Below are positions 14,106 through 56,016 of a stretch of 64,000 nt of DNA, one piece after another. Source of the stretch: Candidatus Woesearchaeota archaeon (GTDB lineage Archaea; Nanobdellota; Nanobdellia; SCGC-AAA011-G17; CAYFGV01). Positions within the stretch are counted from its first letter, which is position 1. Each line of letters starts with the position of its first letter. Under the pieces are notes generated by a model, which saw only the letters and a program-made list of their open reading frames with translations, made no database searches and was not told the origin of the DNA. The DNA lies in the NCBI GenBank assembly GCA_964452525.1, contig CAYVLZ010000002.1, forward strand, positions 2,392-66,391, in the 5' to 3' direction. Made by a program: the position numbers and the translations under genes.

Positions 14106-14106
14106 T

Positions 14107-15221: not shown

Positions 15222-15299
15222 AATAGCTATCTTTTAATTCCTATTTTATAAGTTTTTCTCTAATAAGAGTATTACCTTCCAATAGTTAAAATAAAAACC

Positions 15300-15307
15300 T
15301 TTATAAA
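15300..15307 (+). promoter_or_regulatory. TATA box (aaaaccTTTATAAA) for 15332 CDS
   Basis: Lies 32 nt upstream of the ATG. Confidence 0.45.
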
Positions 15308-15331
15308 CCACCAAAAATCGACTAAAATAAA

Positions 15332-15995: not shown

Positions 15996-16283
15996 GTGGA
16001 AATTGATAAAAAATTGGAAGCACATTTCAAAATAACACAAGAAGCGCTAAAAGAAGTCAAAATAAAAATACCCAAAAAGGTTAATCTAAAAGAGGTGGCA
16101 ACGGATCTTCTAGATTTAGCCAAAAGGTATTACAAAGACGCTAAATACTTTAAGGAAAAAGGAAAAATTGTTGAAGCTTTCACGGCTCTTAACTACAGTC
16201 ACGCTTTCCTTGATGTCGGAGCAAGATTAAAAATCTTCGATGTCCACGATTCAAGATTATTCATGGTAGATGAAGATGAATAA
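15996..16283 (+). CDS. DUF357 family protein
   Basis: YYKDAKYFKEKGKIVEAFTALNYSHAFLDVGARLKIFDV fits the archaeal DUF357 pattern. GTG start. Confidence 0.6.
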   Translation: MEIDKKLEAHFKITQEALKEVKIKIPKKVNLKEVATDLLDLAKRYYKDAKYFKEKGKIVEAFTALNYSHAFLDVGARLKIFDVHDSRLFMVDEDE

Positions 16284-32237: not shown

Positions 32238-34349
32238 ATGAGAAGATATGTATTATTCCTATTCTTAATATCAATCATAAGTTTTTACATTATTCCCAAT
32301 ACTTATGCTACAACAGAAACAACCCTTCTCTGGTATCCTTATGCGGAATGGAGCTTTGATAATCCTGAATGGTCAGAGGAGAACCCATTTGACCTGCAGG
32401 CTCAGGCGATTTTCACTGATTCTCGCGGAAGCTCCCCTTACTTGTTCTATGACGGATCTGACACCTGGAAGCTGAGATATATGTGTACAGAGGTAGGTAC
32501 ATTTGAATTTGTCACATCCTCCACAGACCCCGACCTTGACGGGTTGACAGGAGAGGTAATCTGCCAGAACAATCCAGATGGTATGGGACCGCTTGTCTCT
32601 GCAGGTAGTGATGGCAAGAAGTTTTATGTGCAGGGATGGGAAAAAGCCATCATCCCCGCATGGGTCATGATGCCCGGTCCTGACAGATACGATACTTATC
32701 CGGACATAATTGACCAATGGATAGAGAACAACATCCGGAAATCTGGATTTATCGGAGCCCACAACGGCCCAACAGGCAATGAATGGTATGAATGGGGGTG
32801 CGATGGTTCAATAGCAGACTGTGATGGGGAGAATCCAGATCCAGATACTTTTGCAGCTTATGAAGAAATGCTTGATATGATGTATCAAAACGGAGCTTTC
32901 GTACATTTGTGGGCATTCGGAGACTACCAAAGCGGAACATTAGACAAGTTTCACCCAAAGAATGAGAATCCTCAGGGAGGGGGTGAATACGAGGAGCAAA
33001 GAACAAGGCTTAGACACTACATAGCCGACAGACTGGGAGCAATACCCAACTGGATGATGGGAGAAGGCTATGACAACCACGAGGATGATGATGATCCCAG
33101 ATGGGCGACTTATCCAGAAGATTGGTATAATGACATAAACAACAGGTTAGAATGGCACCATTTCTTGGGAATGAGGGTCAGGAAGAATACATATGACATC
33201 ATATGTGATAATTGTAACTATGATTCCTGGGCTACTGTAGATGATCCCAAAGGCAATGTTAACTATAACAGCTTTTCAGAATCATATGATCAAGCTGATG
33301 GGAAACCTGCTTTTGAAGAAGACAGGTACAGATACAGAATGTTCTATGGAGAAAAAGACCTAGATTCTGTTGATGATCAACGCCATTTCATGTGGTGGCA
33401 AGCTATGAGCGGTGGTGTCGGAGCCATATACGGATATCTTTTCGATGGCACAGAAGATATAGGATATTCTATTCCAGAGGGTTATCCTGATGAATGGCAT
33501 ACCCAAATAAAAGCATGGCATGATTTCTGGTATGAAACAGAAAGTGACCCCCATAGATTTTTCCCATCTATGGAAAGATGTAATGACATAACCAATAATC
33601 ATGGCCTTTGTGAAGTTGGAAAATACTACATCTTCCAAGATGAAGATGTTGAAACATTAACATTTGATATATCCAATTTAATTGGTAGTGTACATGCTGT
33701 AGCAATGGATACAAAAACGGGAGATGTAATTGATTTAGGAGAGGTAGACTCATCATACAATGAGTTCACTGCTCCCCACAATTCAGATTGGGTTGTTGCT
33801 ATAGGTAATTTTGAAGAACAATCTGAACCCCCAATAATATCTAATCTTAGATGTACCACATCTGGTGGTAGAAGGGTTAAATTTGAATGGGAAACAATTA
33901 TGCCTTCTACATCTCGAGTAGGATTTGGAACATATTCGAATGATATTTTCTATCCTGGTTATCAAAACTATATATCTGAAGATGATTCTGGACAAGAATA
34001 TGTAACATACCATTCAATTAGCTATTTGACTAATGTAATATATCCTCCTGGGACGAAGTTTTATTATAGAGTTCAAAGTGAAAATGAAGATGGAGATATT
34101 TCAACCTTCCCACCAATTTATACAGATGACTGTGAATGTCGAATAAGCCCCCAACCAACGATGGTAATAGGAATACCGTCTTATGTAGATGAAAATAAAA
34201 ACAATAAGATAGATGTTTCAGAAGTAATAAATTCTTTCTTTGCTTGGTTCAGAGGAGAAATGACTAAAGATGAATTATTAATGGTTGTACAATCCTGGAA
34301 TAAAAAAACAATACCAATGCAAGGCTCGGTACAAGAATGCAACCCTTAG
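32238..34349 (+). CDS. Secreted DUF5060-like + GH-A-like glycoside hydrolase, FN3-like domain, dockerin-like module
   Basis: Signal peptide. N-terminal beta-sandwich (WYPYAEWSFDNPEW...NPFDLQAQAIF...WKLRYMCTEVGTFEF). A TIM-barrel-like middle region. FN3-like region VKFEWETIMPSTSRVGFG...TKFYYRVQSENEDGD. VDENKNNKIDVSEVINSFFAWFRGEM lies at 34186..34307. Confidence 0.55.
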   Translation: MRRYVLFLFLISIISFYIIPNTYATTETTLLWYPYAEWSFDNPEWSEENPFDLQAQAIFTDSRGSSPYLFYDGSDTWKLRYMCTEVGTFEFVTSSTDPDLDGLTGEVICQNNPDGMGPLVSAGSDGKKFYVQGWEKAIIPAWVMMPGPDRYDTYPDIIDQWIENNIRKSGFIGAHNGPTGNEWYEWGCDGSIADCDGENPDPDTFAAYEEMLDMMYQNGAFVHLWAFGDYQSGTLDKFHPKNENPQGGGEYEEQRTRLRHYIADRLGAIPNWMMGEGYDNHEDDDDPRWATYPEDWYNDINNRLEWHHFLGMRVRKNTYDIICDNCNYDSWATVDDPKGNVNYNSFSESYDQADGKPAFEEDRYRYRMFYGEKDLDSVDDQRHFMWWQAMSGGVGAIYGYLFDGTEDIGYSIPEGYPDEWHTQIKAWHDFWYETESDPHRFFPSMERCNDITNNHGLCEVGKYYIFQDEDVETLTFDISNLIGSVHAVAMDTKTGDVIDLGEVDSSYNEFTAPHNSDWVVAIGNFEEQSEPPIISNLRCTTSGGRRVKFEWETIMPSTSRVGFGTYSNDIFYPGYQNYISEDDSGQEYVTYHSISYLTNVIYPPGTKFYYRVQSENEDGDISTFPPIYTDDCECRISPQPTMVIGIPSYVDENKNNKIDVSEVINSFFAWFRGEMTKDELLMVVQSWNKKTIPMQGSVQECNP

Positions 34350-36431: not shown

Positions 36432-38624
36432 GTGTTAATAATCAAGAAAATATTTTTACTTACAATAGTAATGTTATTCACTTTTGCTTATTCTGTAAAT
36501 GCTTATTGCAATTGGTTTACAGATCCAGATTGCGCAGATCCAACAGGCCCTTGTATATTACACAGATATGATGCAATAAATCATTGTTACGGAAATCCAG
36601 ATGAATGCTATCAAGGAGATTCAATAGAAACTGTTTTAACTGTAAGCGGTGGTTGTGTAGAAGCTACAACAGCATATGCAGAACTATGGGATCTTTATGA
36701 TAATAATCCTTTTGAGTGTTGGGTATTTAATTTAGATCTTACAGAGTGGTGGGGGGCTAATGAAGAAAGCCAGTTATTAGATGGAACATTTAATAACGGA
36801 GATTTAGTTTTTGAACCTGGAGATCCGGATGAAGATACATATACTATTCATGCAACCTGGGATATTCCAGAAGCACGCTCTGATTTATTTGATACTTGTG
36901 AAGGATCCACTTTAGCATTAGACTATGGATATGGTTGGGGAGATTGGATATACTTATTTGATGTTAATGGAGAAGGAGTAATAGATGATTATAATCTAGA
37001 TATAGATGGTACAGACAGCCTCATAAGTTTTACATATGTCTGTTATAGTACAGAAACTGGACAATGTTCAGACGGAATAGATAATGATTGCGATGGCCAA
37101 ACCGATTCTAATGATCCTGATTGCGGGAGTACAGAAGGATGTTTAATACAATCAATGAGCATCTCTCCTAGTTGTGCTGGAGGATCTTCTCCAGATTGTG
37201 AACAAGGAGAAACAATAGATATGCAAGGAACCATAATCGGGAATCCATCAATATGTACCTATATAAATTTCTTACAAATAGATGCAAATCAACAGAGTGA
37301 TCTTAACCACGGATATTGTACTGTAGGAATAGGAGATAATCATGATATGCAAGGTATCTTCGCAACAAATCCCGACATAACTTTCAATTCAGCTAACGGA
37401 TACACTAGTTATACTATAAGTGGTTCATGGCCCATTCCACAGATTCCTTCACAATGTGAAGGTAAAAACATGAACGCTGGAATTGCTAGAATATATTACA
37501 ATGGTTTAAGAGATGATTTTGCAGGAACAACTGGGAGTTTTTCTTTCTATGACGGAACCCCTCCCCAAACAACACAATGCAATGATAATGTAGATAATGA
37601 TGGAGATGGGAATATAGATTGGGATGGTGGTGGAGAAGGCCTACCAGATACTGGTTGTACAGACGAATTTGATGATGATGAAACAGACTGTGGAGACGGT
37701 GTTTGTGAGCTAGAAGAAATACTTACCTGTCCGGCCGATTGTGGAGATCCTATAGAAGAATGTGTCTTAGGTAACTTGTATTGGTCTGTTCCAAAAGAGG
37801 GTTATGGTAAAGGAGAATACTCTGAAAGCGATTTTCTTGGAATTCACATTAACGATGCTACTTGGCTAAACCTAAAAGGAAATCAACAATGTAGTGGTTT
37901 AGAAGCTACCTTTAAAATTTATGAATGTGATGAGATTACAGCAGATCATGGATGTAGGAACAGAGAACTTATTCCAGAAGGAACTTTCACTACAACTTTT
38001 GACGATGATGATTTATTATTTGCCAAGTGGTGGTTAGCAGAATATCATGACGAAGGAGATGGAGATGCAGAATATAGAATTCAAGCAACCGTTGGAGATA
38101 CAACAACAGGATGGTCTCTTAATTATCTAGAAGTAATTAATCAAGAAGCAGAAGATTGCAGACAAACAGGATGTACTGGACAAGAAAAATGTTGTGCAAC
38201 TACAGGGTATACATGTGAATTACCTGAAAACTGTCCACAAGAAGGCTACTGTGATAATATAGGAGGAACTTGCTGTGATCCAGATCCTCTAGTAGAAGGT
38301 TGTTATGGTAACTGGATAGGTGGGAGTCAAGATTGTCCAACAAGTTGTTGTGATAATATTTGTACTGAAATAACTGGACCTAATGAAGACCAATGGTATA
38401 GTTATGGAGAATGTGAGGATCCTGATGGAGATGGATTTGGAAAACAACAGAGATATAAACATATAAGAGATACAGAAACAGGACAAGTAACCACGACAGG
38501 AGATGGAGAAGTAGACTGTGTGGTAATAGGAACTTCTGTACCAATATTCACAGCATTTAATGCAATCATAGCATTATTATTGATAACAGGTTACTATATT
38601 TACACTAGAAGATTCAAAAAATAA
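36432..38624 (+). CDS. Secreted Cys/Asp-rich surface protein with MopE-like metal-binding motifs and C-terminal TM anchor
   Basis: Signal peptide. CSDGIDNDCDGQTDSNDPDC and CNDNVDNDGDGNIDWDGG. Many paired Cys residues. C-terminal TM segment FTAFNAIIALLLITGYYIY followed by RRFKK. Confidence 0.55.
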   Translation: MLIIKKIFLLTIVMLFTFAYSVNAYCNWFTDPDCADPTGPCILHRYDAINHCYGNPDECYQGDSIETVLTVSGGCVEATTAYAELWDLYDNNPFECWVFNLDLTEWWGANEESQLLDGTFNNGDLVFEPGDPDEDTYTIHATWDIPEARSDLFDTCEGSTLALDYGYGWGDWIYLFDVNGEGVIDDYNLDIDGTDSLISFTYVCYSTETGQCSDGIDNDCDGQTDSNDPDCGSTEGCLIQSMSISPSCAGGSSPDCEQGETIDMQGTIIGNPSICTYINFLQIDANQQSDLNHGYCTVGIGDNHDMQGIFATNPDITFNSANGYTSYTISGSWPIPQIPSQCEGKNMNAGIARIYYNGLRDDFAGTTGSFSFYDGTPPQTTQCNDNVDNDGDGNIDWDGGGEGLPDTGCTDEFDDDETDCGDGVCELEEILTCPADCGDPIEECVLGNLYWSVPKEGYGKGEYSESDFLGIHINDATWLNLKGNQQCSGLEATFKIYECDEITADHGCRNRELIPEGTFTTTFDDDDLLFAKWWLAEYHDEGDGDAEYRIQATVGDTTTGWSLNYLEVINQEAEDCRQTGCTGQEKCCATTGYTCELPENCPQEGYCDNIGGTCCDPDPLVEGCYGNWIGGSQDCPTSCCDNICTEITGPNEDQWYSYGECEDPDGDGFGKQQRYKHIRDTETGQVTTTGDGEVDCVVIGTSVPIFTAFNAIIALLLITGYYIYTRRFKK

Positions 38625-38634
38625 TTCTTAAATA

Positions 38635-39535
38635 GGGTGCGTTCAAAATCTTTATTAAATAGTAACCCCTAGCAGAAGCTAGGGGGGAAACACGTAGGAG
38701 GTGTTTCCAATGAAAAATAAGACAAAACTAATAAATAAAGTTAAGCGTTTGCTTAAACGCTTGGGATTTCCAAGATTTCTACATAGATATGGGCCAAAAA
38801 CATATGAATTATTTTGTCATGTACAAGCATATCTTGTTAAGCAAGAATGTAAACTTGGTTACAGAAGAGTAACCAAGTTGCTAAGAGGACTAGGAATTAA
38901 ATGTCCTTGTGCATCTGCTTTATGCACAAGTTTTAACAAATTGCCTCTTAAATCATGGAAAATCATTCTTGCTGCTAGTGCAAATATTAAGGTTAATTTA
39001 GCAGCTATAGATGGTAGTGGCTTATCAAGACCCTTGCCGAGTCCTCATTATTATAAAAGGATTGATAAGCCATATCCTATAGATATTCCCCTAAAACAGT
39101 CTATAGCTGTTGATACTAAAAGTAAGAGGATATTAGCTCTTAGACTTAGGTCTAAGAAAGCGCATGATATTAGAGATGCTAAGTATCTTATTAGGAATCT
39201 GCCAAGAAAGCCTAATAAGATAATTGCTGATAAAGCATATGATGCAAATTGGCTTCATAGATATTGTCTTAATATTCTTATTAAGACATGTATTCCTATT
39301 AGGAGCTTTAATGGCAAGCACTGTAGGAATACTCTTAGGAAGAGATTAGCTAAAAGTATTACTAAGAAAACTTATGGTAGGAGGAATATTGTTGAGTCTG
39401 TATTTAAAGCATTAAATACTAAGTTTGGATCTAGTGTAAGCTCTGTTAAGTTCTCTGCTCAAAGAGCAGAGATATACTGTAGAGCTATTACTCATAACAT
39501 GTTTTTGTTATTTACTGAGTCTTTGAACGCAACCC
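38635..39535 (+). mobile_element. IS4/IS5-family insertion sequence (~0.9 kb)
   Basis: Imperfect terminal inverted repeats: gggtgcgttcaaa (38635..38647) and tttgaacgcaaccc (39522..39535), matching 13/14. A single DDE transposase ORF lies between them. The element sits between a surface-protein gene and rps2. Confidence 0.75.
38666..38708 (+). promoter_or_regulatory. Two tandem perfect 8-bp hairpins upstream of the transposase start; the second occludes the SD
   Basis: cccctagc-agaa-gctagggg (38666..38685) and ggaaacac-gtaggag-gtgtttcc (38686..38708). The SD ggaggtg spans the loop and 3' arm. The ATG is at 38710. Confidence 0.6.
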
Positions 39536-39540
39536 AGTAA
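38710..39540 (+). CDS. DDE transposase, IS4/IS5 family
   Basis: LAAIDGSGL (D), IIADKAYDANWL (D), RNIVESVFKALNTKFG (E) fit the DDE_Tnp_1 layout. Confidence 0.8.
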   Translation: MKNKTKLINKVKRLLKRLGFPRFLHRYGPKTYELFCHVQAYLVKQECKLGYRRVTKLLRGLGIKCPCASALCTSFNKLPLKSWKIILAASANIKVNLAAIDGSGLSRPLPSPHYYKRIDKPYPIDIPLKQSIAVDTKSKRILALRLRSKKAHDIRDAKYLIRNLPRKPNKIIADKAYDANWLHRYCLNILIKTCIPIRSFNGKHCRNTLRKRLAKSITKKTYGRRNIVESVFKALNTKFGSSVSSVKFSAQRAEIYCRAITHNMFLLFTESLNATQ

Positions 39541-39580
39541 ATAACAACATTTAAATACTAAATATTTTTATCAAAAAATA

Positions 39581-40406: not shown

Positions 40407-41339
40407 ATGATTAAGGCCATAAAATACTCCAAAGGAAACGTAAAAAAAACTGAGTTCAAAAGCCTTAATTTCTTACGTGAATTATCATGGATAGACTGTT
40501 ATAATCCAACTGAAGAAGAATTAAAACTTTTATATGACAAAACAGGGATTACTGTTACAGATCTAAAAGACGCTCTAGATTTTAGAGAGCTTCCAAGAAT
40601 ACAAAATAAACTTAAGTATTCCAAAATAATCTTCAGAATACCAAGTTCCAATTACACGATACCTTTGGGGATATTCGTAACTAAAAAATTCATTGTAACA
40701 ATCCATAAAGAAAATATAGAATTCTTAGAGAAATTAATGAAAAATCTAATATCTGATACAGGACAGCTAATATTCAAGAATGGAACAAGTTTTTTAGTTT
40801 ATAGAATAATGCTTGATTCTATAAGAGAGTTCACAAGAAGCTTAGACAAAATAGGAGAAGCCTTAGAAGATATAGAAGAAGATATCTTCAAAAATGCTTC
40901 CGAACACAATTCACAAAAAATATTCTCCTCAAAGAGAAGATTGCTCTACTTTAAAAGATCATTAAACGGAAACAAAAATGTAATAGAAAACATAACAAAG
41001 ACCAAATTTATAGCTCCTAATTCATATGATAGTTTCTCTAATCTCCATATTGAATTATCCCAAGTAATAAGTGTAGAAGAAACTTATAGAGAGAGATTAA
41101 CAGAAAGCATGGAGATGCATATGACAAGTGTTTCCAATAAATTAAATGAAGTTATGAGAAGCTTTACAGTTATAGCATCTTTGCTATTACTACCGGTGTT
41201 AATAGCAGGAATTTGGGGAATGAATTTTGGTAACATACCTCTCTTCGCTCATAACAATGGTTTTTATGTAGCAATCCTAATAATGGTAGTAAGTATGTTA
41301 ATCATGTTTTTATTCTTTAAGAAAAAGAAATGGGTATAA
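40407..41339 (+). CDS. corA: CorA-family magnesium transporter
   Basis: GIWGMNF (GMN motif) plus two C-terminal TM segments. Confidence 0.9.
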   Translation: MIKAIKYSKGNVKKTEFKSLNFLRELSWIDCYNPTEEELKLLYDKTGITVTDLKDALDFRELPRIQNKLKYSKIIFRIPSSNYTIPLGIFVTKKFIVTIHKENIEFLEKLMKNLISDTGQLIFKNGTSFLVYRIMLDSIREFTRSLDKIGEALEDIEEDIFKNASEHNSQKIFSSKRRLLYFKRSLNGNKNVIENITKTKFIAPNSYDSFSNLHIELSQVISVEETYRERLTESMEMHMTSVSNKLNEVMRSFTVIASLLLLPVLIAGIWGMNFGNIPLFAHNNGFYVAILIMVVSMLIMFLFFKKKKWV

Positions 41340-42157
41340 TGCGAAAAGCAAAATATTCTGGATTATTCTATGAAAAAGAATTTAATGCTTTAAATAAGCA
41401 AATTGAAGATTCTTTTACATCTCAAAGAGGCCCCGGAGATTTACCATTAAAAAGAACAGATAAAAAAATTTATGCAGTGATTTCCCCGCATGCCGGATAT
41501 CCTTATTGTGGAGAAGCTATGGCATGGTCCTATAAGGAAATAGCAGAATCACAATTCCCAGATTTTTATTTAATTATTGGAACAGATCATAACGGTTTAG
41601 GAAATTCTGTTTTCATAGAGGATTTCGAAACTCCCTTTGGATTAGTTAAAACCGACATCGAATATACAAAAAAGTTAGTTGAAGAAGGATTTAAAGAAAC
41701 CAAAAACACAACTGAACATTCTATAGAAGTCCAATTACCCTTCTTGCAATTCGTTTCTAAAGACAAATTAAAAGATTTAAAGATAGTTGCGATTACTGTA
41801 AATGAAAAAATAAGACTTCCTAAAACAGACAAGAGTTTTATAATAATATCAAGCTCTGACTTCACTCATTATGGTCCTAATTATGGGTATGTACCTTTCA
41901 TATATAATAAAAAAGAAAATTTGTATAAACTAGACAAGGACGCAATTAAATTTATACAAGAATTAAATACTGAAGGTTTCTTAAAATATGTAAAGGAAAA
42001 AGAAGCTACCATATGCGGTTACAATAGTATTGGAACTTTAATAGAAAATTGTAAAGAAAAATGTGAAAGAGGAATTCTACTTCAATATTATACTTCTGGA
42101 GATGTAATAAACAACTATAACAATGCAGTTGGTTATGCAGCAATGGTTTTTAAGTAA
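41330..42157 (+). CDS. MEMO1 / AmmeMemoRadiSam system protein B family
   Basis: AVISPHAGYPYCGEAMAWSY, IIGTDHNG, EHSIEVQLPFLQ, SSSDFTHYGP. Confidence 0.85.
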   Translation: MGIMRKAKYSGLFYEKEFNALNKQIEDSFTSQRGPGDLPLKRTDKKIYAVISPHAGYPYCGEAMAWSYKEIAESQFPDFYLIIGTDHNGLGNSVFIEDFETPFGLVKTDIEYTKKLVEEGFKETKNTTEHSIEVQLPFLQFVSKDKLKDLKIVAITVNEKIRLPKTDKSFIIISSSDFTHYGPNYGYVPFIYNKKENLYKLDKDAIKFIQELNTEGFLKYVKEKEATICGYNSIGTLIENCKEKCERGILLQYYTSGDVINNYNNAVGYAAMVFK

Positions 42158-42216
42158 AAAACCAACATTTAAATATTTTATTTAACTACCCCTTAAAACC
42201 GTATGGGGGTGGGATA

Positions 42217-45200
42217 TTGGATTTTAATATAAAAATAATATTATCTATGATTTTTGCTACATTTGTTATTTCTACAGCTGTTTCAGCTACAGTTAATATT
42301 GATATCGATTTACCTCAAAATACTTTCTATGACGAGGATCAACTAAAATTTGATTATACTTTAACATCAACACAAGAAGAGAATATTACATTTACTCCAT
42401 ATATGCTATGCCCCAACAACCAGATACCTTTACTAGAGGAGATAAATATCTTATTAGAAGAAGATGTTCCTTACTCTGCTGAATACAAAGATTTTATTGT
42501 AGATGAGCAATATTCTAATTCTGCCACGTGCTCAGCAGGAATTAAGATTACTGATCCTTTTGAACAAGAAAGCCACGAAACTTTCAACATAGATGTATTA
42601 CCAAAGATGGCAACAAGACTTAGTTTTAACTCCCAATTATGTGAGATCCCCCAAGTGTTCTTCACCTCAGACGAAACCGTAACAGCCAATATAAGAGCTG
42701 AAAATCAAATGTCCCCAGGAACGCCATTAGAAACACAAAACACTGGATTTTATGTTAATCCTGAAGGAGAAAACGTTGAGATAGATTTCTCAGGAGACCA
42801 AGCCAATATTCCTTTTGATGGATATGGAAATTATTACGTCGAAATTACCTCTTCTCTGGGAGGTTACATGGATAAGACAGAAAACAAATATTTTTCATAT
42901 CTAGAAGAGCATATCCCTATTATTTTAGAAACAAATTGCAATTCTAATTCAATATGCGAAAACAATGAAAATTATCAAAACTGTCCAATGGATTGTTATG
43001 GTATTCCTGGAGATAGAATTTTAAGAAATGAACCACAATATGACGAAAACATGGTCTTCTTAGCAACAGATAACGACTGGAGAAATATTCTAAGATTAGT
43101 TCCTGTTGTAAGCTGGAACATTGGAATGACTCACAAGAACTACCCAATGTTGATATTACATAATGAAGGCTTAACATTGCAAGAAGAAAACTATGCTCTT
43201 GCAAGAAACGGAGCAACCATTACAGCAAACAATTACCATGAAGAACAGAATTCCCCAGACGCAGCAATAGACGGCGAATTATCTTCAAGATGGAACTCCG
43301 GAACAAGCGAAGAATCCTGGCTAGAAGTAGATATGGGCTCCTCAAAAATAATAGATCAAATAAAACTATACCATTTCGGTAGTGTTGATTACTATGCTAA
43401 TATTGAAGTAAAGGAGACTCCAGAAGACGAATGGCAATTGGTTGAAGAAAACATAGAGCTTCTGGGACATTGGCTTCCTATCGTTGTCGACTTTGACCCT
43501 GTAACAGCAAGATATGTAAGAATAACAATGGATACTCTCGGAAGTCCAGATTGGAAAACCCTTAATGAAATAGAAATATTCAACACACAACAAGATCCTT
43601 GTTTAAAAGAAGCCTTTGATCCAGATTCAATAATAACCTTCTTACAACAATATGAGCCAAGCAGAGTATTTATCTTCGGAGACACCCCACAAGAATTCGA
43701 CGATTTATTAACAGCAGATGAACCTTTTGGAGCAGGCCTTGATGAAACACAATTAAGAAGACAGACCCCTTATGATGTATTTTCATATTGGAACGAATTT
43801 GACAAAGTAGTAATAGTTGATTATGATGACTATAAAGCAGCTCTGTTGGGAAGCACAATAGCATCTAAACTTAACAGTCCAATACTATTCATAGACCGAT
43901 TGAATATAGATTTACATCAATATGTAATAAACGGAAGAGAAGCCATAGTCGTTGGTGACGTAGATTCTGAAACAAGAAATGGAATAGATGATTGGGCTTC
44001 ACAAAGAACTTATTTAACAATAGAGCAAGCACAAAATCACTATAAGAACTTAATGAATCCAGACAAGATTTTGATGGTTAATCCTCATGATTGGAACTAT
44101 GCATTTGTTCCAGAGAATAAATTCCTACCAGAAAAAACAGATAACAAACTTCTTTACACATTCACAAAAGATTCTGTAACAGCACCCTTCTTAGCTGCTG
44201 CTAAAAATGAATTATTAATGTTTAATGAGATCCCAAAAAGTCCATTAAATAACGAATGCAGTAGTAATTATTATGTTACAGAAAATATTCAAACAACAGA
44301 TCAGAACATGGTAGATTTTGTTAACAGATTCCAGGATAATGATTTTGAATACCTCACCATAATATCCAATCATTATTCGATACCAGAATCACAATTCTCT
44401 TATTGTTATAATGATGACACTGAAGGGGGAAAATATCAGGTAAGAATTCAACAGGATAAGAAATATGCTAGACATCCGAATAACGAACCAATAATAACAC
44501 AACCTGTCATAGATAGGGACTCTCAGAATAACATATATGCTGTCTGGCATCAAGCTTCTGAAATATTCTACAAAAAAACAGATCAAGATATGAACACCTT
44601 AATTGAAGATACCCAATTAACAGATGATGATAATCATGCTTCATTCTCTCCAGATACTGCAATAGATTCCTATGACCATCTAAACGTAGTTTGGTCAGAC
44701 TTAAGAGATGTTGCTACCCTCGAAATATATTTTAATAAGATAGACCAAAACGGTTACAAAGTATTTGCACAAGATAAAAAAATATCACCCGATAATTCTA
44801 TCGACAAATATGAACCAAAGATAATAAGCGATGAAAACTATCTATACGTTTTCTGGAGAGTAATGTTACCAGGGAATCAATTCTACAAGATGCAAAAACT
44901 AAATTACGACGGATCTAAAGTTGGCGAGGTCATGGAGATAGGAGAATCATTTAACGTAGTCGGTGATTACGATCTAGCGATAGATGATAACTATATTTAT
45001 TTAATATCTTCAAAAAGCATCTCTGAGAATGGAAAACAGATAGTATTCTTGAAATTGGATAAGGAAGGTAATCTCATCAAAGAAGAGATAATTGAAGAGA
45101 CAGATTATCAATCTCTTGATCCGCAGGTAGTAATGGATTCTGACGAGAATCTACATATAATATGGAGAGACTATGTAGGAGATTCAAAATCCGAATTATT

Positions 45201-46383
45201 CTATAAAAAAATAGACAAGAGTAACAACGAATTAATTGCTAAAAAAGAAATAGAAACAACAAATAAGATAAAACAATTGCACCATCTCTCTTTAGCAATA
45301 AATTCACAAGATAAATTATTCTTAACATTAAGAGAAGTAATAAATGCTCTTGATGACGTTACAATAATAAAATTAGATAAATATGGAAATGAAATAAAGA
45401 GGATGCATGTAAACTCTCAAGCAGGCTCAATAAAAGATACAGATATTTTAATAGACGATTCAGAAGATGTTTACGTAGTATGGCAGTGGTTCCAAGGAAA
45501 TGAAAGAATAAATTTCATAAAACTAGATAGTAACCTGCAACAAGTTATTGAGAACTCAAGACTTAATCAATATGCCGAAAATTTCCACTTATCTGTAGGG
45601 AGGGTTTATGGAATAACCCCGACAGACACATCAACAGTAGTTGCAAGATCTATAATGTACGATAAAATGACCGATAAGCTTTACAATGAAAATGAATACA
45701 ATACTCTATGGATTACAAGATCATTCTCTCACCATGCAATAAAAGCAAGTACAGATTCTGCCATAATGGACAAAAGCAAAGTAAATGCAGTATGCTCAAC
45801 AGACGAATATTATGGTTGTGAACATATAGACGATCATGGAAAAATTCCAGACGAGTATTTAGAGGATAAACAAATAATATTATTAACAGACCACGGAGGA
45901 ATAAGTAACTTTGGAGCGGGGTCAATATTAACACATACAATGCCTTATGTACAGAATCCTTTTGTCTTTGGCTATGCATGCTCAACGAATAATGTATGGC
46001 AAGGTTATCATCCAGAAGGATATCTTGCAGACCCTGGGATAAATACTTTTGGTTTGCATTTCTTAAGAAATGGAGCTGTTTCTTACATAGGATCAGCAGG
46101 TCTTACTTTTGATTCTCGTAAAAGCTCAGACCAGTTCATCAAACTCATGACACAAGGAAACCAAAGAACAATTGGAGATGCTAATGAGATAGCAGATACA
46201 GACCTTTACTATAGACAACATTTCGTACTAATTGGAGACCCTACTCTAAGTATTAAATCTAAAAGAGTGAACTGGGAAAAGAACGTAATCCTTCCTTTAG
46301 AACCGAAGAAGAAAGTCTGGGAACTAGATGATCCCTGGCCACCACAAGATGATAAAGTTAAGAAAGCCGTGAGAATCAATTAA
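42217..46383 (+). CDS. Giant secreted protein: F5/8 type C (discoidin) domain, beta-propeller-like repeats, C-terminal clan-CD (C25/gingipain-like) cysteine peptidase-like domain
   Basis: TTG start with the SD-like gggggtg. The discoidin domain spans 43177..43585 (AIDGELSSRWNSG...WLEVDMG...ARYVRITM...LNEIEIF). At least 6 repeats of type hhhVW.D.....E(I/L)(Y/F)(F/Y)KK(I/L)D..G span about 44497-45550. A His/Cys dyad context IILLTDHGG ... FVFGYACSTNN lies at about 45874-45993. Confidence 0.55.
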   Translation: MDFNIKIILSMIFATFVISTAVSATVNIDIDLPQNTFYDEDQLKFDYTLTSTQEENITFTPYMLCPNNQIPLLEEINILLEEDVPYSAEYKDFIVDEQYSNSATCSAGIKITDPFEQESHETFNIDVLPKMATRLSFNSQLCEIPQVFFTSDETVTANIRAENQMSPGTPLETQNTGFYVNPEGENVEIDFSGDQANIPFDGYGNYYVEITSSLGGYMDKTENKYFSYLEEHIPIILETNCNSNSICENNENYQNCPMDCYGIPGDRILRNEPQYDENMVFLATDNDWRNILRLVPVVSWNIGMTHKNYPMLILHNEGLTLQEENYALARNGATITANNYHEEQNSPDAAIDGELSSRWNSGTSEESWLEVDMGSSKIIDQIKLYHFGSVDYYANIEVKETPEDEWQLVEENIELLGHWLPIVVDFDPVTARYVRITMDTLGSPDWKTLNEIEIFNTQQDPCLKEAFDPDSIITFLQQYEPSRVFIFGDTPQEFDDLLTADEPFGAGLDETQLRRQTPYDVFSYWNEFDKVVIVDYDDYKAALLGSTIASKLNSPILFIDRLNIDLHQYVINGREAIVVGDVDSETRNGIDDWASQRTYLTIEQAQNHYKNLMNPDKILMVNPHDWNYAFVPENKFLPEKTDNKLLYTFTKDSVTAPFLAAAKNELLMFNEIPKSPLNNECSSNYYVTENIQTTDQNMVDFVNRFQDNDFEYLTIISNHYSIPESQFSYCYNDDTEGGKYQVRIQQDKKYARHPNNEPIITQPVIDRDSQNNIYAVWHQASEIFYKKTDQDMNTLIEDTQLTDDDNHASFSPDTAIDSYDHLNVVWSDLRDVATLEIYFNKIDQNGYKVFAQDKKISPDNSIDKYEPKIISDENYLYVFWRVMLPGNQFYKMQKLNYDGSKVGEVMEIGESFNVVGDYDLAIDDNYIYLISSKSISENGKQIVFLKLDKEGNLIKEEIIEETDYQSLDPQVVMDSDENLHIIWRDYVGDSKSELFYKKIDKSNNELIAKKEIETTNKIKQLHHLSLAINSQDKLFLTLREVINALDDVTIIKLDKYGNEIKRMHVNSQAGSIKDTDILIDDSEDVYVVWQWFQGNERINFIKLDSNLQQVIENSRLNQYAENFHLSVGRVYGITPTDTSTVVARSIMYDKMTDKLYNENEYNTLWITRSFSHHAIKASTDSAIMDKSKVNAVCSTDEYYGCEHIDDHGKIPDEYLEDKQIILLTDHGGISNFGAGSILTHTMPYVQNPFVFGYACSTNNVWQGYHPEGYLADPGINTFGLHFLRNGAVSYIGSAGLTFDSRKSSDQFIKLMTQGNQRTIGDANEIADTDLYYRQHFVLIGDPTLSIKSKRVNWEKNVILPLEPKKKVWELDDPWPPQDDKVKKAVRIN

Positions 46384-46447
46384 TTATCTTATAGTGGTGA
46401 AGAAGGAAAGCTTTTTAAATTTTTATTTATTCTTAAATAAACTTAAA

Positions 46448-47986
46448 ATGAAGATCTTTAGAATCGCTTCAGTATTAGCGACACTTTATACATTGTCTGG
46501 ATTATCTGGAGAAGTTAAAAGCCAGTCCGTTAGTGACACTACTAATACAATTGTAGAAAATGCTGAATTCAATACAGACTTAGAATATCCACATTTACTT
46601 CAATTTTATACTACTCAAAATTATGTTGGAGAGCCTTTTATTTCATTGGCAGCTGTTAATGAACCTTCAGATAATGTTACAGCAGAGCTTAAAGGAAATC
46701 TTGGAATAGATCTTGATATAGAATTGATTAAAAAACAAGGAAGGATTGCCTATTATAAGATATCTAGTCAAGAGAATTTACCAGATTTTATTGAAGATTT
46801 TGTCTTTGATTTAAACCTAAAAAATAATGATAATGACTTTGAAGGCGAAACAAGATACTACTTTTTACAGCCAAATTATTATGAAAATTACTTAACAGTA
46901 TTCTCTAATAGCAACCAAGATTCTCTTATTGGAATAACAAGAATGGATGATGTTGCTGTACAAAATATCTTAGTTGAAGCACTTGGAGAAGATTATTTTC
47001 CATCTGGACAAGTAGAGCCTTTTTCAGGAACTATAGATTTATCTACAGATCCACCCGCAACCATATCTCTTTTAGAAAGATTTGAAGCTGCTGAATACGG
47101 AGATCTAGGAGAGTTTGTTCAAAGAACTTTAGAAGGTATGGAACAAAATTCTCTTTATTCTAAAGAAGTAAGAAATAGAATTTTATATGCAGCAGAATAC
47201 AACCCATACTTAATAAGTTTCCAAGTAGATATTTCTCAAAGGAATTCTAATTCAATAAATCAAAAAAGAGAAGACCTAGAACAAAAAATAGGCTCTTTCT
47301 ATGTTTTATCTCAACAACATTCAACAGAAAATCAAAGAAAATATCCTGATTTAGAAGACACTATAAGGCTAATGCAAGGTTTTAATGATCTGACTTATCT
47401 TGGATCAAATATGAGTCCTGAAAAGCTTCCACAAAATAATGGTGCACATAAAATGACCGTTCCTGTTGTTATTGAGGTATCTGACACAGAGTTAGACACC
47501 TTAAGAGTCGAAACCTTTTCTGAAGATGAAAATATAATCTTAAACGAAGGTAGAGAAAGGAAAATTGAACAAATCCAAGATGGTTACAGGGTAACTTTCT
47601 ATTTTGATTTCAATACAGGAGAAGATACAGAAGCACCATCCGGTTTCAAAATATTCTATGGAGAAACAGGAATAGAAGACAATCATAATTCTTCTGAACT
47701 GCCAAAAACAATAATCTTATATCAAAATTATCCTAACCCATTTAATCCTAGTACTACATTAAACTATGATGTTGTCGGAGAAGAATGCAAACATGTTGAT
47801 TTAGATATCTATAATATAAGAGGGAAACATGTTAAAACTCTAGTGGATGAAGAAAGATGTCCAGGTACACACCGGGTAATTTGGGACGGAAAAGATAAAT
47901 ACGGAATCAAAAACTCAGGAATTTATTTCTCTACATTAAAAATAGATGATGAAACTAGAACAAATAAAATGATATTATCTAAGTAG
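46448..47986 (+). CDS. Secreted protein ending in a T9SS-type (Por secretion tail / FlgD-Ig-like) C-terminal sorting domain
   Basis: Signal peptide MKIFRIASVLATLYTLSGLSGEVKSQ (ATG at 46448). The C-terminus LYQNYPNPFNPSTTLNYDV...VDLDIYNIRGKHVKTLVDE...GTHRVIWDGKDKYGIKNSGIYFSTLKIDDETRTNKMILSK (47705..47983) closely matches the TIGR04183-type consensus. Confidence 0.8.
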   Translation: MKIFRIASVLATLYTLSGLSGEVKSQSVSDTTNTIVENAEFNTDLEYPHLLQFYTTQNYVGEPFISLAAVNEPSDNVTAELKGNLGIDLDIELIKKQGRIAYYKISSQENLPDFIEDFVFDLNLKNNDNDFEGETRYYFLQPNYYENYLTVFSNSNQDSLIGITRMDDVAVQNILVEALGEDYFPSGQVEPFSGTIDLSTDPPATISLLERFEAAEYGDLGEFVQRTLEGMEQNSLYSKEVRNRILYAAEYNPYLISFQVDISQRNSNSINQKREDLEQKIGSFYVLSQQHSTENQRKYPDLEDTIRLMQGFNDLTYLGSNMSPEKLPQNNGAHKMTVPVVIEVSDTELDTLRVETFSEDENIILNEGRERKIEQIQDGYRVTFYFDFNTGEDTEAPSGFKIFYGETGIEDNHNSSELPKTIILYQNYPNPFNPSTTLNYDVVGEECKHVDLDIYNIRGKHVKTLVDEERCPGTHRVIWDGKDKYGIKNSGIYFSTLKIDDETRTNKMILSK

Positions 47987-47996
47987 TTTCAATTTA

Positions 47997-48485
47997 TTAT
48001 AATAGCTCTTTTTCGGATATAGATTCCCCGAACAATCTATCTTTCTTCCAATCGCGAATATCAGTTACATGTCTCCTCAATCTGCTTAATGATTCAGGTA
48101 TCTCGCAACCTTTTTCAGGTTCAGGACAAAATTGTATTAGCATACTTTCTATCACACCGTTAACACCAAACTGTATAAGCCATTCTAAGTCTTGTTTAGA
48201 ATACTCAAAAGGGATAATATCATGAACACTGTACCAAAAAGATTCATAATCATTCTTTAATAGATCTACTGGATTAACTCTTGTTATAAATTCTCTATAG
48301 GCTTCTCCATCACCCTCTAAGAGACGTTCACTTGCATCATACTCTATGCCAACTATATTAACTAAATAACTTACTCCAATTTCTCTCTTTTGATCATAAT
48401 TTAAAGAATTGCTTTGTCTGTTCCATCTCTTTAAGAAATACTGAACTTTTTCTCTAATGCTCCGGTTTACAAGGCCGGTCTCCAC
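47997..48485 (-). CDS. Hypothetical protein (GTG start, probably leaderless)
   Basis: The track ORF extends to 48620, but that would overlap the divergent DUF192 gene. The GTG at 48485 has a TATA box (rc of 48507..48514) 29 nt upstream. No family recognised. Confidence 0.45.
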   Translation of the reverse strand: METGLVNRSIREKVQYFLKRWNRQSNSLNYDQKREIGVSYLVNIVGIEYDASERLLEGDGEAYREFITRVNPVDLLKNDYESFWYSVHDIIPFEYSKQDLEWLIQFGVNGVIESMLIQFCPEPEKGCEIPESLSRLRRHVTDIRDWKKDRLFGESISEKELL

Positions 48486-48506
48486 AATTTTACTACTACT
48501 TTTTAT

Positions 48507-48514
48507 TATATAAA
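48507..48514 (-). promoter_or_regulatory. TATA box (minus strand, cttTTATATAat) for 47997..48485
   Basis: Lies 29 nt upstream of the GTG at 48485. Confidence 0.4.
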
Positions 48515-48542
48515 AGTATTGATAAACTACAACACAACAAAG

Positions 48543-48550
48543 TTTAAAAA
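48543..48550 (+). promoter_or_regulatory. TATA box (aaagTTTAAAAA) for DUF192 gene
   Basis: Lies 29 nt upstream of the ATG at 48572. Confidence 0.4.
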
Positions 48551-48571
48551 GGGTTATATTGCCGTTTATAT

Positions 48572-48934
48572 ATGAATTATGAGATTCATAACCAGAATAT
48601 AGTTCTAGCTGATAATGCAAAACACCATAAAGATTTTTTCTTCAAAGCTCGTGGATTAATGTTCAGAAAGCCTTTAAGAAAAGGTCAAGCAATGATCTTG
48701 GAATCAACAAATGAAGGCATTTTAGATACAACGATACACATGTTATTTGTCTTTTATCCAATAGACGTAATTTGGTTAAATTCTAATAAAGAAGTAGTAG
48801 ATATTAAGAAAAGTGTTATCCCTTTTATTCCATGGTTATCTCCTAAAGCTGCTGCAAAATACGTAATAGAATTAAGAAAAGGCACAGCTAAACACGTAAA
48901 CATCGGAGATATCTTAAAATTCATTAGAAAATAA
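48572..48934 (+). CDS. DUF192 (COG1430) family protein
   Basis: ARGLMFRKPL..GQAMILE....IHMLFVFYPIDVIWLNSNKEVVDIKK...AKYVIELRKGTA. Confidence 0.75.
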   Translation: MNYEIHNQNIVLADNAKHHKDFFFKARGLMFRKPLRKGQAMILESTNEGILDTTIHMLFVFYPIDVIWLNSNKEVVDIKKSVIPFIPWLSPKAAAKYVIELRKGTAKHVNIGDILKFIRK

Positions 48935-48971
48935 GGAAAAAATTTATATACATTCCTTACTTAATTTAAAT

Positions 48972-53361: not shown

Positions 53362-55402
53362 AAAGGTAAAACTACAAAATATCAGAAGCTATAAAAATCA
53401 AGAAATAAGCTTTCCAGAAGGATCCATACTACTAAGTGGAGATATAGGCTCAGGTAAAAGTACAATCTTATTAGCAATAGACTTCGCTTTATTTGGCTTA
53501 AGAAGAGGAATATTGTCAGGTTCTTCTTTACTAAGAAACGGCACAGACAGAGGCGGTGTAGAATTACATTTCAATATTTCCAATAAAGACGTTGTAATAA
53601 AGAGAACTCTAAAAAGAGAAAAAAGTGTAACTCAAGATTCTGGTTTTGTGATGATTAATGAGAATAAAAAGGAAGGTACCGCAACAGAAATCAAACAGCT
53701 AGCTCTTAATTTATTAAATTATCCTAAAGATCTACTAACTAAAAATAAAGATTTAATCTACTCCTACACTGTCTACACCCCGCAAGAAGAAATGAAACAC
53801 ATACTATTAACAGATAAAGAAACTAGATTAGACATCCTAAGAAAAATCTTTGGAATAGATAAATACAAAAGAATCAATGATAATTCCAAAATATTCTTAA
53901 CAAAAGTAAGAGAAAAGAAAAAAGAATTCTCAGGAATGATCTCAGACTTAGAAAATAAGAAACAAGAAAAACAAGAAAAGCAATCAAAAATAGAAGATCT
54001 AAACAAAAAACTACTTTCCTTAAAAGAAAGCCTAGAAAATCTAGATAAGAAAATCTCAGATAAAACTTCGTTATTTGAAAGAACAGAATCAGAAATATCT
54101 AAACTAAATGAGTTAAAAAAACAGTTAGAATTAACTACTCTAGATTTAAAACATAAGAAAGATTCTTTACAAAGAAACCAGCCAGAGATGGAAAATCTAA
54201 GATCTTCTATAAACATATTAAAAGAAGAAGTTAAAGATGTCCCTGAAGAGAATATCAAAGAAGAGATCTCAAATAAAGAATCTAAATTAAGAGAAGCTGA
54301 AAAAGAGCTTGAGGAAATAACAAAAAAAGTCCAGGAATATGAAATTATTAAAAACCAATCAGAAGATCTAAAAGACAAAATATCCAAACTAGATATCTGT
54401 CCGGTATGTAAACAAACAGTAACTCAAGAACACAAACATTCTATTAACTATGAAGAAGATAAAAAACTACAAGAAATATCCAAAAACTCAATGCTATCAA
54501 AACAAAAACAATTAAAATCCGGAGAAGAAGTCACTAAATTAAGAGAAAAACTGGATTCTCTAAGAAAACAAGAACAACAGATTTCTCTATTCAAGATTAA
54601 ACAAGAAAACCTAAAAGAAAAAACAGAAAAATTAGATTCTTTATTAAAACAACAAGCAACACTCGGAGAGGAAATAGAAGACTTAGATTCCAAAAAAACC
54701 GAAATATCAAGTAACTTAGACAAATATAAGGATACAGAATCCATACACAACACTATAAAAGAAGAACTCGAAAATCTACAAAAACAGAAAAAAGATCTAG
54801 AAATAGAAGCAGCAACATTCAACAGAGAATTAAAAGATACTAAAGACTTCCTAGAAACAATAGATAAAGAAATTCAAAAAAAATTAGACATAAAAAATAA
54901 AATAGAAAAGCTAGATTCAACTCAAAACTTGATTCAAGAAATTTTTAACAATTTAATGACAAACATGGAAAAACAGATTATGCTTAAAGTCCACAGTGAT
55001 TTTGATTCTCTATTTCAAAAATGGTTCGGGATTTTGGTGGAAACTGAAGCATTAAAGATAAGATTAGATCACGATTTCACCCCCCTAATAGAGCAGAATG
55101 GTTATGATATCGATTATCTGCATTTGAGCGGCGGAGAGAAAACAGCAGCAGCTCTTGCTTATAGACTAGCCCTAAATCAAGTAATTAATAACTTAATGAG
55201 TACAATAGAGACTAAAGATTTATTGATATTAGATGAGCCCACAGATGGTTTCTCAGACGAGCAAATAGACAGAATCAAATTAGTTCTAGACGAATTAAAG
55301 ATTCAGCAGGTAGTCATAGTTAGTCATGAAAGTAAGATAGAAAGCTTCGTAGACAGCATAATCAAAATAAATAAAAACAACCATATCAGTGCAGTATCAT
55401 GA
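53351..55402 (+). CDS. rad50: DNA double-strand-break repair ATPase Rad50 (short coiled coil, 683 aa)
   Basis: Walker A GDIGSGKST. Long K/E coiled coil. Zinc hook CPVC (54398..54409). Signature LSGGEKTAAALAYRLAL. Walker B LLILDEPT. VIVSHE. Confidence 0.9.
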   Translation: MLLKKVKLQNIRSYKNQEISFPEGSILLSGDIGSGKSTILLAIDFALFGLRRGILSGSSLLRNGTDRGGVELHFNISNKDVVIKRTLKREKSVTQDSGFVMINENKKEGTATEIKQLALNLLNYPKDLLTKNKDLIYSYTVYTPQEEMKHILLTDKETRLDILRKIFGIDKYKRINDNSKIFLTKVREKKKEFSGMISDLENKKQEKQEKQSKIEDLNKKLLSLKESLENLDKKISDKTSLFERTESEISKLNELKKQLELTTLDLKHKKDSLQRNQPEMENLRSSINILKEEVKDVPEENIKEEISNKESKLREAEKELEEITKKVQEYEIIKNQSEDLKDKISKLDICPVCKQTVTQEHKHSINYEEDKKLQEISKNSMLSKQKQLKSGEEVTKLREKLDSLRKQEQQISLFKIKQENLKEKTEKLDSLLKQQATLGEEIEDLDSKKTEISSNLDKYKDTESIHNTIKEELENLQKQKKDLEIEAATFNRELKDTKDFLETIDKEIQKKLDIKNKIEKLDSTQNLIQEIFNNLMTNMEKQIMLKVHSDFDSLFQKWFGILVETEALKIRLDHDFTPLIEQNGYDIDYLHLSGGEKTAAALAYRLALNQVINNLMSTIETKDLLILDEPTDGFSDEQIDRIKLVLDELKIQQVVIVSHESKIESFVDSIIKINKNNHISAVS

Positions 55403-55944
55403 CAAAACATATAAAGTTCAAAAACCTCAGAAAAACAATAACTAAAAAAATTAAATCCGGTTCTATATTCATTTACCCTACAGACACAATTTATGGCTTA
55501 GGTTGTAATGCTTTAAACTCAGAAAGTGTCTCTAAGATAAGAGCAATTAAAAGAACTACTAAACCTTTTAGTGTAATAGCTCCAAGTAAACAATGGATAT
55601 ACAGAAATTTTAAAGTAAAGAATAAAAATTATATTAGGAAATTACCAGGTTCTTTTACTTTTGTTCTTGAATCTAAAAAGAGAAATATTGTAAGCAAAGA
55701 AACAAACCTAAATCTTAAGACTCTAGGAATAAGAATCCCAAAACACGATTTTACTAAGTTCATCAAAGTACCTTTCATTACTACTTCCGTAAATCTCACA
55801 GGAAACAAACCAATTATAAGTGTTAAAAAAGTTCCTAAAAAAATTCTTAAAGAAGTAGATATTGTAATTGATGATGGAATCTTAGACAACAAACCTTCTA
55901 CAGTAATAGATCTAACAGAAAAAATACCAAAGATTCTCAGATAG
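55399..55944 (+). CDS. tsaC: L-threonylcarbamoyladenylate synthase, YrdC-domain only
   Basis: IFIYPTDTIYGLGCNA, KRTTKPFSVI, TTSVNLTG. Confidence 0.8.
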   Translation: MTKHIKFKNLRKTITKKIKSGSIFIYPTDTIYGLGCNALNSESVSKIRAIKRTTKPFSVIAPSKQWIYRNFKVKNKNYIRKLPGSFTFVLESKKRNIVSKETNLNLKTLGIRIPKHDFTKFIKVPFITTSVNLTGNKPIISVKKVPKKILKEVDIVIDDGILDNKPSTVIDLTEKIPKILR

Positions 55945-56016
55945 GGGTTATAGGGTAACTTGGTATCCTTCAGCCATGGGGTGGCTGCGATCTGGGTTCA
56001 AATCCCAGTAACCCCC
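55944..56016 (+). tRNA. tRNA-Pro (GGG), no intron
   Basis: Acceptor ggggtta/taacccc, anticodon arm cagcc-atGGGgt-ggctg with G37, T arm ctggg-ttcaaat-cccag. Two nt lie between the D and anticodon stems. The first base overlaps the tsaC stop codon. Confidence 0.75.

Follow-up and report, generated by a model that had tools for sequence, protein, structure and literature searches.

A type A T9SS C-terminal-domain-like tail on a predicted secreted protein in an accessory gene block of a DPANN archaeon

I analysed a stretch of 64,000 nucleotides of contig CAYVLZ010000002.1 (hereafter the window; all coordinates are window positions). An initial annotation had reported that a secreted protein encoded here, in an archaeal genome, ends in a bacterial C-terminal domain (CTD) of the kind found on type IX secretion system (T9SS) cargo. 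The gene of this protein, hereafter the target gene, lies in a short block of three genes, and only one full-length homologue of its product was found, the metagenomic protein P0002. The features of the locus are as follows.

42158..48571, no strand: lineage-specific insertion of about 6.4 kb with three genes, delimited by synteny with the closest related locus (L056) and eight further loci
42217..46383, plus strand: predicted secreted protein of 1388 amino acids in the same block, with F5/8 type C (PF00754) and Peptidase_C25 (gingipain-family; PF01364) domains
46413..46420, plus strand: TATA-like box TTTTAAAT, a putative archaeal promoter; a purine-rich stretch precedes it and ATG 46448 lies 35 nucleotides downstream
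46448..47986, plus strand, stop codon included: target gene, predicted secreted protein of 512 amino acids (open reading frame list, alignment with P0002, signal peptide by inspection)
46448..46525, plus strand: predicted Sec signal peptide MKIFRIASVLATLYTLSGLSGEVKSQ with a charged n-region and a hydrophobic core by inspection; the N-terminus of P0002 is equivalent
46520..47704, plus strand: orphan N-terminal and central region of 395 amino acids (residues 43-437; family searches and exhaustive phmmer)
47699..47983, plus strand: C-terminal FlgD-Ig-like or T9SS type A CTD-like domain of about 95 amino acids, hereafter the tail (profile searches, tail profile, structure model, conserved columns)
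47997..48620, minus strand: hypothetical open reading frame hyp207, 207 amino acids, convergent with the target gene and third in the block; start codon doubtful

The open reading frame (ORF) of the target gene runs on the plus strand from a GTG codon at 46394 to the stop codon at 47984-47986 and could encode 530 amino acids. It is likely that translation starts at ATG 46448 rather than at this GTG codon, because the alignment with P0002 opens at residues 17-19 and a Sec-type signal peptide follows the ATG; the N-terminus (MKIFRIASVLATLYTLSGLSG) is Sec-signal-like by inspection. No match for residues 43-437 was found in Pfam, NCBIfam or PHROG, and an exhaustive phmmer search of this orphan region against 1.84 billion representatives returned only the protein itself and P0002. 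A full-length AlphaFold2 (AF2) model, built from an alignment of depth 2, has a pLDDT of 37 and is unusable for the fold of the N-terminal part. At the other end, the ORF is intact and the last residue of the tail directly precedes the stop codon. The tail residues quoted in the initial annotation (KTIILYQNYPNPFNPSTTLNYDVVGEECKHVDLDIYNIRGKHVKTLVDEERCPGTHRVIWDGKDKYGIKNSGIYFSTLKIDDETRTNKMILSK) are the exact translation of the codons at 47705-47983.

The tail is what connects the target protein with other proteins. A phmmer search with the whole protein gave 2535 proteins at E≤1e-3, all but one of which align through the tail only. These alignments cover the C-terminal 18-26 % of the matched proteins at 45-58 % identity, with E-values from 1e-16 to 2e-27, and most proteins among the matches listed carry PF18962 and PF13860. 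The closest tails with source names come from Glassbacteria, Zixibacteria and Bacteroidota; the identity to the Glassbacteria protein P0003 is 57 %. On average the tail is 49 % identical to the bacterial tails, which equals the identity of the bacterial tails among themselves. A hidden Markov model (HMM) made from 56 tails retrieved the window ORF at E 1e-36 (envelope at amino acids 443-537 of the stop-to-stop ORF), and the target was the only tail-bearing ORF in the window. When this profile was compared with the sequences of the Protein Data Bank (PDB), it matched FlgD structures (E 1e-5) and, among experimentally characterised T9SS CTDs, those of PorU (6za2, residues 1061-1153 of 1156, 5.5e-5), PorZ 5m11 and 8glj_D. 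A single-sequence phmmer search of PDB sequences with the tail gave no match.

The family models gave a divided answer. TIGR04183 was passed marginally (23.9 bits for the whole protein and 28.8 for the tail alone, cutoff 23). PF18962 recognised the tail alone (27.7 bits) but not the whole protein (20.3 bits, cutoff 27), while the FlgD_ig model PF13860 stayed below its cutoff of 27 in both cases (18.4 bits for the whole protein and 21.7 for the tail). Thus, of the three models named in the initial annotation, one supports the assignment narrowly, one supports it for the isolated tail, and one does not. By its scores, the tail sits at the border of FlgD_ig and Por_Secre_tail. True FlgD caps the flagellar hook and has its Ig-like domain inside the protein rather than as a C-terminal tail. 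Among individual sequences, the tail of the window comes closest to the FlgD-Ig tails of Zixibacteria, Glassbacteria and Ignavibacteria. On the sequence comparisons, the tail is homologous to the FlgD-Ig or type A T9SS CTDs of FCB-group bacteria. The donor lineage sought in the initial annotation is resolved to the FCB group by the homology search and no finer, because the shortness of the tails and their star-like relationships prevent a closer assignment.

Four conserved motifs (A, B, D and E) describe type A CTDs, and motif E includes lysines at the C-terminus (PMC10202324). I defined conserved columns as the 28 alignment columns that are at least 80 % conserved in 54 bacterial tails, and these columns correspond to the motifs defining type A CTDs (PMC10202324). 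The tail of the window retains 26 of the 28, including NYPNPFNP, SG-Y and the C-terminal K-M-x-x-x-K, so that motifs A, B, D and E are present, with the lysines of motif E. The tail-only AF2 model (pLDDT 86, pTM 0.76) is an all-beta sandwich of 6-7 strands, a predicted fold consistent with the Ig-like beta-sandwich of about seven strands of the CTD family. A Foldseek comparison of this model with the PDB gave only generic Ig-like folds, none at E<1e-3, with FlgD 3osv among the best structural matches (TM-score of FlgD 0.57); FlgD and other Ig domains are not distinguished from a CTD by this comparison.

In several respects the tail resembles a type A T9SS CTD closely. It lies at the extreme C-terminus, spans about 95 amino acids on a protein that starts with a predicted Sec signal, is predicted to form an Ig-like beta-sandwich and scores above the TIGR04183 cutoff. 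It also shows NYPNPFNP, G-x-x-V, W-D-G, SG-I-Y-F and the terminal K-M-x-L-x-K, and its profile has matches among solved CTDs, namely those of PorU and PorZ and one bound to the translocon. It differs in that the full-length protein is under the PF18962 cutoff and that the host is a DPANN archaeon, for which no outer membrane is expected. There is one tail in 64 kb here and none in 0.9 Mb from relatives, while FCB genomes carry dozens. The initial annotation had seen no T9SS machinery in the window. This holds for the approximately 55 ORFs or segments scanned against Pfam or NCBIfam, among which no member of the PorV, SprA, PorU or GldK/L/M/N families was found. The profile match, terminal position, motifs and predicted fold are thus present but the co-occurrence with T9SS is not, and for this reason the tail is best described, from its sequence, as a type A CTD-like domain; the target protein is not to be called T9SS cargo.

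P0002 gives a view of how the tail has changed. This protein of 521 amino acids (JGI 3300038380, Ga0434945_040015) is encoded on a 2-kb JGI contig (L001; GC content 0.39) and is 36 % identical to the target over the whole length with the same architecture, including the tail. Since both proteins carry the tail, the fusion is older than their split. The two tails are 33 % identical to each other, and the identity is unevenly distributed. P0002 keeps 25 of the 28 columns conserved in bacteria as compared with 10 of the remaining 67 (Fisher p 7e-12), and P0002 and the target agree with each other at 23 of the 28 conserved columns as compared with 8 of 67 elsewhere. Since the conserved columns were kept while the others diverged, the pattern indicates that the family-defining residues of the tail are under purifying selection in the family of the target and P0002. 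The partial ORFs flanking P0002 on L001 gave no matches. The composition of L001 leans weakly to DPANN (r 0.74 as compared with 0.61, on 2 kb only), and there is a TATA-like box at about -33. As a separate observation, the tail of the target has two cysteine codons, at 47792-47794 (..GEECKH..) and 47858-47860 (..EERCPG..), that occur neither in P0002 nor in the bacterial consensus. In an archaeal protein outside the cell, the pair might be joined by a disulfide bridge.

The DNA around the target gene is archaeal. The window encodes a split RpoB''/RpoB' followed by RpoA', proteasome alpha, SBDS, a protein with an archaeal pilin-type N-terminus, Mre11/Rad50, an RNase J of archaeal length, enolase and ribosomal protein S2. 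With its best relative RpoB' shares 77 % identity, and with proteins that bear the names Nanoarchaeota, Nanoarchaeia or Candidatus Woesearchaeota archaeon it shares 67-70 %. Thus, judged from these genes and identities, the host belongs to the DPANN archaea and is of the Nanoarchaeota/Woesearchaeota type. The locus is also present in two microbial-mat metagenome runs, for which unitigs were built separately. The unitigs from the two samples show no mismatch to the window and an even depth of 4-6x, and they cross all four junctions: that between Memo and the C25-like gene (41934-43737), that between the C25-like gene and the target gene (46289-46922), that between the target gene and hyp207 (47663-48345 and 47818-48141), and that between hyp207 and DUF192 (48119-48969).

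The composition of the target gene is host-like. Its GC content is 0.314 and its GC content at third codon positions (GC3) is 0.18, with 0.19 in the tail, while GC3 of the RpoB and RNase J genes is 0.21-0.25. The tetranucleotide correlation of the region at 45-49 kb with the whole window is 0.97-0.98 (window mean, 0.951), and the target gene correlates more closely with the remainder of the window (0.96) than with FCB loci (0.74). The coverage and tetranucleotide check called for in the initial annotation thus speaks for one continuous molecule with a host-like signature. The promoters agree with this. TATA-like boxes are found at -45..-24 in 18 of 54 window genes, where about 2 % would be expected, and a promoter motif (ACAACATTTAAATA) is common to the C25-like gene and the S2 gene. 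A 19-nucleotide promoter-like motif, AAAWAMCAACATTTAAATA, lies upstream of both the S2 gene (39539-39557) and the C25-like gene (42157-42175). In the window as a whole, boxes of the TTTAWAWA type lie 24-45 nucleotides 5′ of a third of the start codons, a spacing which suggests short or absent leaders.

Is the tail common in this group of archaea? The window was compared with 80 metagenomic loci of related DPANN archaea (903,869 bp), which were anchored on RNase J at 53-72 % identity. The conserved backbone has the order enolase-S2-CorA-Memo-DUF192-RNase J-Mre11-Rad50. The closest locus, L056, reads enolase-g35678-S2-CorA-Memo-(1.1 kb of small unrelated genes)-DUF192-RNase J-...-Mre11-Rad50-g55399, and the backbone is common to eight loci besides it. 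In the window, the three-gene block is inserted between Memo (41330-42157) and DUF192 (48572-48934). Homologues of the three block genes are absent from all 80 related loci, and the tail HMM found no tail-bearing ORF in these loci. The same HMM recovered the window and L001 as positive controls and detected 114 tails in FCB loci, with at least one in each of 53 of 53 loci (749,632 bp). These 53 confirmed loci came from a scan of 185,579 species-representative genomes with narrow peptide patterns, which is not exhaustive; all belong to FCB bacteria (Ignavibacteria, Zixibacteria, Calditrichia, Cloacimonadota, Marinimicrobia, Bacteroidota and WOR-3) and all match through the tail only. By these comparisons the block is an accessory, lineage-specific insertion. 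At the corresponding position (8366-9654), L056 has genes for a 128-amino-acid membrane protein, a 149-amino-acid lipoprotein-like protein and an 80-amino-acid zinc-ribbon protein. As the small genes of L056 are different from those of the block, the interval between Memo and DUF192 is a variable spot for surface genes.

The block is not bordered by direct or inverted repeats above chance expectation, no integrase or viral genes were found at its margins, and PHROG gave no match; a viral or mobile origin of the block is therefore not supported. The third gene of the block, hyp207, matches no family, PHROG included, and none of the 80 related loci contains a homologue. From its TTG start it shares 49 nucleotides with the beginning of the divergent DUF192 gene (plus strand), and no TATA-like box precedes it. 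Either its true start is further in or it is no gene at all.

The upstream neighbour of the target gene deserves a description of its own. Its F5/8 type C domain lies at amino acids 335-440 (PF00754, 55.6 bits), and PF01364 scores 41.3 bits (cutoff 23) on the segment 45199-46380 but is unreported on the full-length protein. DHGG and GYACS motifs look intact by inspection (a His/Cys-looking dyad). The Peptidase_C25 domain is seemingly split by an insert of about 400 amino acids made of 'VW-D-R...IY-K-D-G' beta-propeller-like repeats. This C25-like protein is a near-orphan with only two distant relatives, P0242 and P0243, and the tail HMM detected no tail on the contig of P0242. PorU, the T9SS sortase that removes the CTD, is a member of the C25 family, and C25 peptidases of FCB bacteria often bear the same tail (e.g. 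P0080 and P0092). The PorU-specific model NF033707 did not match the C25-like protein even at E≤10, and a search of PDB sequences gave no match to PorU 6za2. A role of this neighbour as a PorU-like sortase is thus not supported. At the P0002 locus, the 31-amino-acid end of the upstream gene does not resemble the C-terminus of the C25-like protein.

Several other features of the window were recorded. An insertion sequence (IS) element at 38625-39544 consists of a DDE_Tnp_1 transposase gene (38701-39540) and imperfect 23-nucleotide inverted repeats (38625-38647 and 39522-39544), and it sits between the gene of a 730-amino-acid acidic double-disulfide-repeat protein (36432-38624) and that of ribosomal protein S2. 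Neither the transposase nor the 730-amino-acid protein occurs in any of the 80 related loci. A tyrosine integrase gene (8667-9905, with PHROG integrase matches) directly follows tRNA-Gly(GCC) at 8529-8602 and is itself followed by small, mostly minus-strand ORFs without family matches; from this arrangement, the region 8529-15917 could be an integrated element. ARAGORN predicts a tRNA-Pro(GGG) at 55944-56016, which overlaps the last stop-codon base of the ORF at 55399-55944; the Rfam tRNA model gave no tRNA there at gathering score. The window is also unusually rich in genes for large predicted secreted or surface proteins:

3001-3555, 6914-8038, 16270-18582, 21446-25549 and 32238-34349: large predicted secreted or surface proteins
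25546-27309, minus strand: large predicted secreted or surface protein

The domains of these surface proteins include fn3/Pur_ac_phosph_N, a pilin-like N-terminus with Laminin_G_3, DUF6298/apiosidase-like, Peptidase_M64 and DUF5060. This richness, as predicted from the genes, fits a lifestyle of surface interaction.

How did an archaeon obtain such a tail, and what may it do there? That a domain of the T9SS type stands at the end of a predicted secreted protein in an archaeal genome, as initially annotated, is borne out by the HMMs, the homology and the archaeal contig; I regard the observation, its archaeal location and the homology, taken together, as nearly certain. The tail, or the whole gene, would have been acquired by horizontal transfer from FCB bacteria, since the relatives of the tail are found only there and are extremely abundant. 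The acquired gene would now reside in the 6.4-kb accessory block beside a C25 peptidase gene, within a housekeeping backbone, and its product would be exported by Sec. Type IX secretion depends on a translocon in the outer membrane (SprA/PorV), and FCB bacteria are the only group in which the system is known (PMC10202324, PMC12398890). Because of this need, and because the window has no T9SS components, the tail would be unable to work as a T9SS signal in a host that is probably single-membraned, with no outer membrane and no known T9SS. Most probably, purifying selection instead maintains it as a stable Ig-like surface module at the C-terminus, with a putative stabilising, spacing or adhesion role. 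Of the explanations offered initially, transfer from bacteria to archaea with the tail kept as a fold is the best supported one, given that the 53 related species-representative loci all belong to FCB bacteria, that no tail was found in 0.9 Mb of related DPANN sequence and that the gene lies in a lineage-specific insertion. I consider this reading as a whole, from bacterial transfer through Sec export to a tail selected as an Ig-like module and not as a T9SS signal, to be probable, with a good deal of room left for doubt. Some points weigh against it. The role of the tail in the archaeon is one that I infer from the sequences, and the absence of T9SS components and of further tails covers the 64-kb window and the loci of relatives. 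In solved CTDs, the residues of the conserved motifs lie exposed at the surface (PMC10202324), and folding alone is therefore not an obvious reason for their retention. A donor with a low GC content would equally give a host-like composition. If P0002 belonged to a T9SS-bearing bacterium, part of the argument for purifying selection would be weakened.

Other explanations would account for some of these facts. A chimera, in which assembly or binning joined an FCB fragment to an archaeal contig, would explain why all relatives of the tail are bacterial and why the three block genes have no archaeal homologues, and the sequencing depth is low, at about 5x. This possibility, raised in the initial annotation, is refuted by the independent unitigs that cross four junctions in two samples without mismatch and at equal depth. 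It also conflicts with GC3 values and tetranucleotides closer to the host than to FCB loci, the host-type TATA box at -35, the promoter motif that the C25-like gene has in common with the S2 gene, and the archaeal syntenic backbone on either side, so that a chimera is highly improbable. Hardly more credible is an ancient FlgD-Ig-like fold that was inherited vertically in archaea and resembles T9SS tails by convergence or as a generic Ig domain. The Foldseek result (generic Ig-like matches, TM-score of 0.57 with FlgD, none at E<1e-3) and the marginal Pfam scores would suit this idea. On the other hand, an identity of 43-58 %, with NYPNPFNP invariant and K-M-x-x-x-K at the C-terminus, is more than a generic likeness, no tail was found in the 0.9 Mb of related DPANN DNA, and the gene stands within a lineage-specific insertion. 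The domain, which the initial annotation had considered might prove widespread and vertically inherited in this lineage, is instead rare and accessory.

The two remaining explanations accept the transfer and differ on the fate of the tail. It may be a non-functional relic of a T9SS cargo gene that was transferred recently, drifts neutrally and has not yet decayed. Transfer of a whole gene from a low-GC FCB donor would account both for the near-consensus tail (49 % mean identity) and for a host-like GC content without long residence. The fusion, however, is older than the split from P0002 (36 % identity), with conserved columns kept and others lost; the tetranucleotide signature and the promoter are of the host type, and the ORF is intact to its last residue. 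I therefore regard a relic as unlikely. Alternatively, the tail may still be a recognition tag, either for the adjacent C25-like peptidase in a PorU-like manner or for docking to PorV or T9SS of neighbouring FCB bacteria in the mat. The same block contains, directly upstream, the gene of a predicted secreted C25-like protein with an intact-looking dyad, and the nearest relatives of the tail are in FCB bacteria with many tails. Moreover, the family residues reported to be surface-exposed and to contact PorV or PorM (PMC10202324) are kept at 26 and 25 of the 28 columns in the target and P0002, respectively, while the rest of the tail diverged. Against this stand the lack of PorU-specific similarity in the C25-like protein, a pairing with C25 that is not visibly conserved at the P0002 locus (31-amino-acid upstream gene end), and the possibly structural nature of the many conserved positions that are occupied by Gly, Pro or aromatic residues. 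A retained tag thus seems distinctly unlikely. The specific version, that by analogy the C25-like peptidase would cleave the tail and anchor the cargo covalently on the archaeal surface, or that the tail would dock onto PorV/T9SS of FCB bacteria, is more doubtful still. If cleavage and anchoring were true, a T9SS-independent sortase-substrate module would have been transplanted into a monoderm archaeon.

Transfer of surface-protein parts from bacteria to DPANN archaea is in itself unsurprising. Some proteins of archaeal metagenome-assembled genomes (MAGs) are labelled 'T9SS type A sorting domain-containing' in NCBI annotation. Transcribed extracellular C25 peptidases have been listed for archaeal MAGs in a table on Thermoprofundales/MBG-D (PMC6461988). 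The annotation there is the name of the best database match, which is no proof of a tail on the archaeal protein, and the table is thus a weak precedent for archaea having T9SS-cargo-like genes in common with FCB bacteria. The case resembles the present one in that the neighbour of the target gene also encodes a secreted C25-family protein, here with an F5/8 type C domain. It differs in that those archaea are Thermoplasmatota while the present host belongs to DPANN, and in that the C25-like protein here is tail-less and the product of the next gene is tailed. No paper was found in the literature that links the T9SS CTD with DPANN.

The type A CTD is usually taken as a marker of T9SS cargo and of the FCB group, and here it is found in a DPANN chromosome outside any T9SS context. 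Annotation pipelines will give the label 'T9SS type A sorting domain-containing' to proteins from archaea, for which it does not imply a secretion system. The locus offers a clean case, anchored by synteny, in which parts of bacterial surface proteins would have been imported into an accessory region of a DPANN genome. The adjacency of a gingipain-family peptidase gene provides a testable hypothesis. The retention of the conserved CTD residues where no T9SS is expected may also serve as a natural experiment on whether these residues matter for folding or for recognition.

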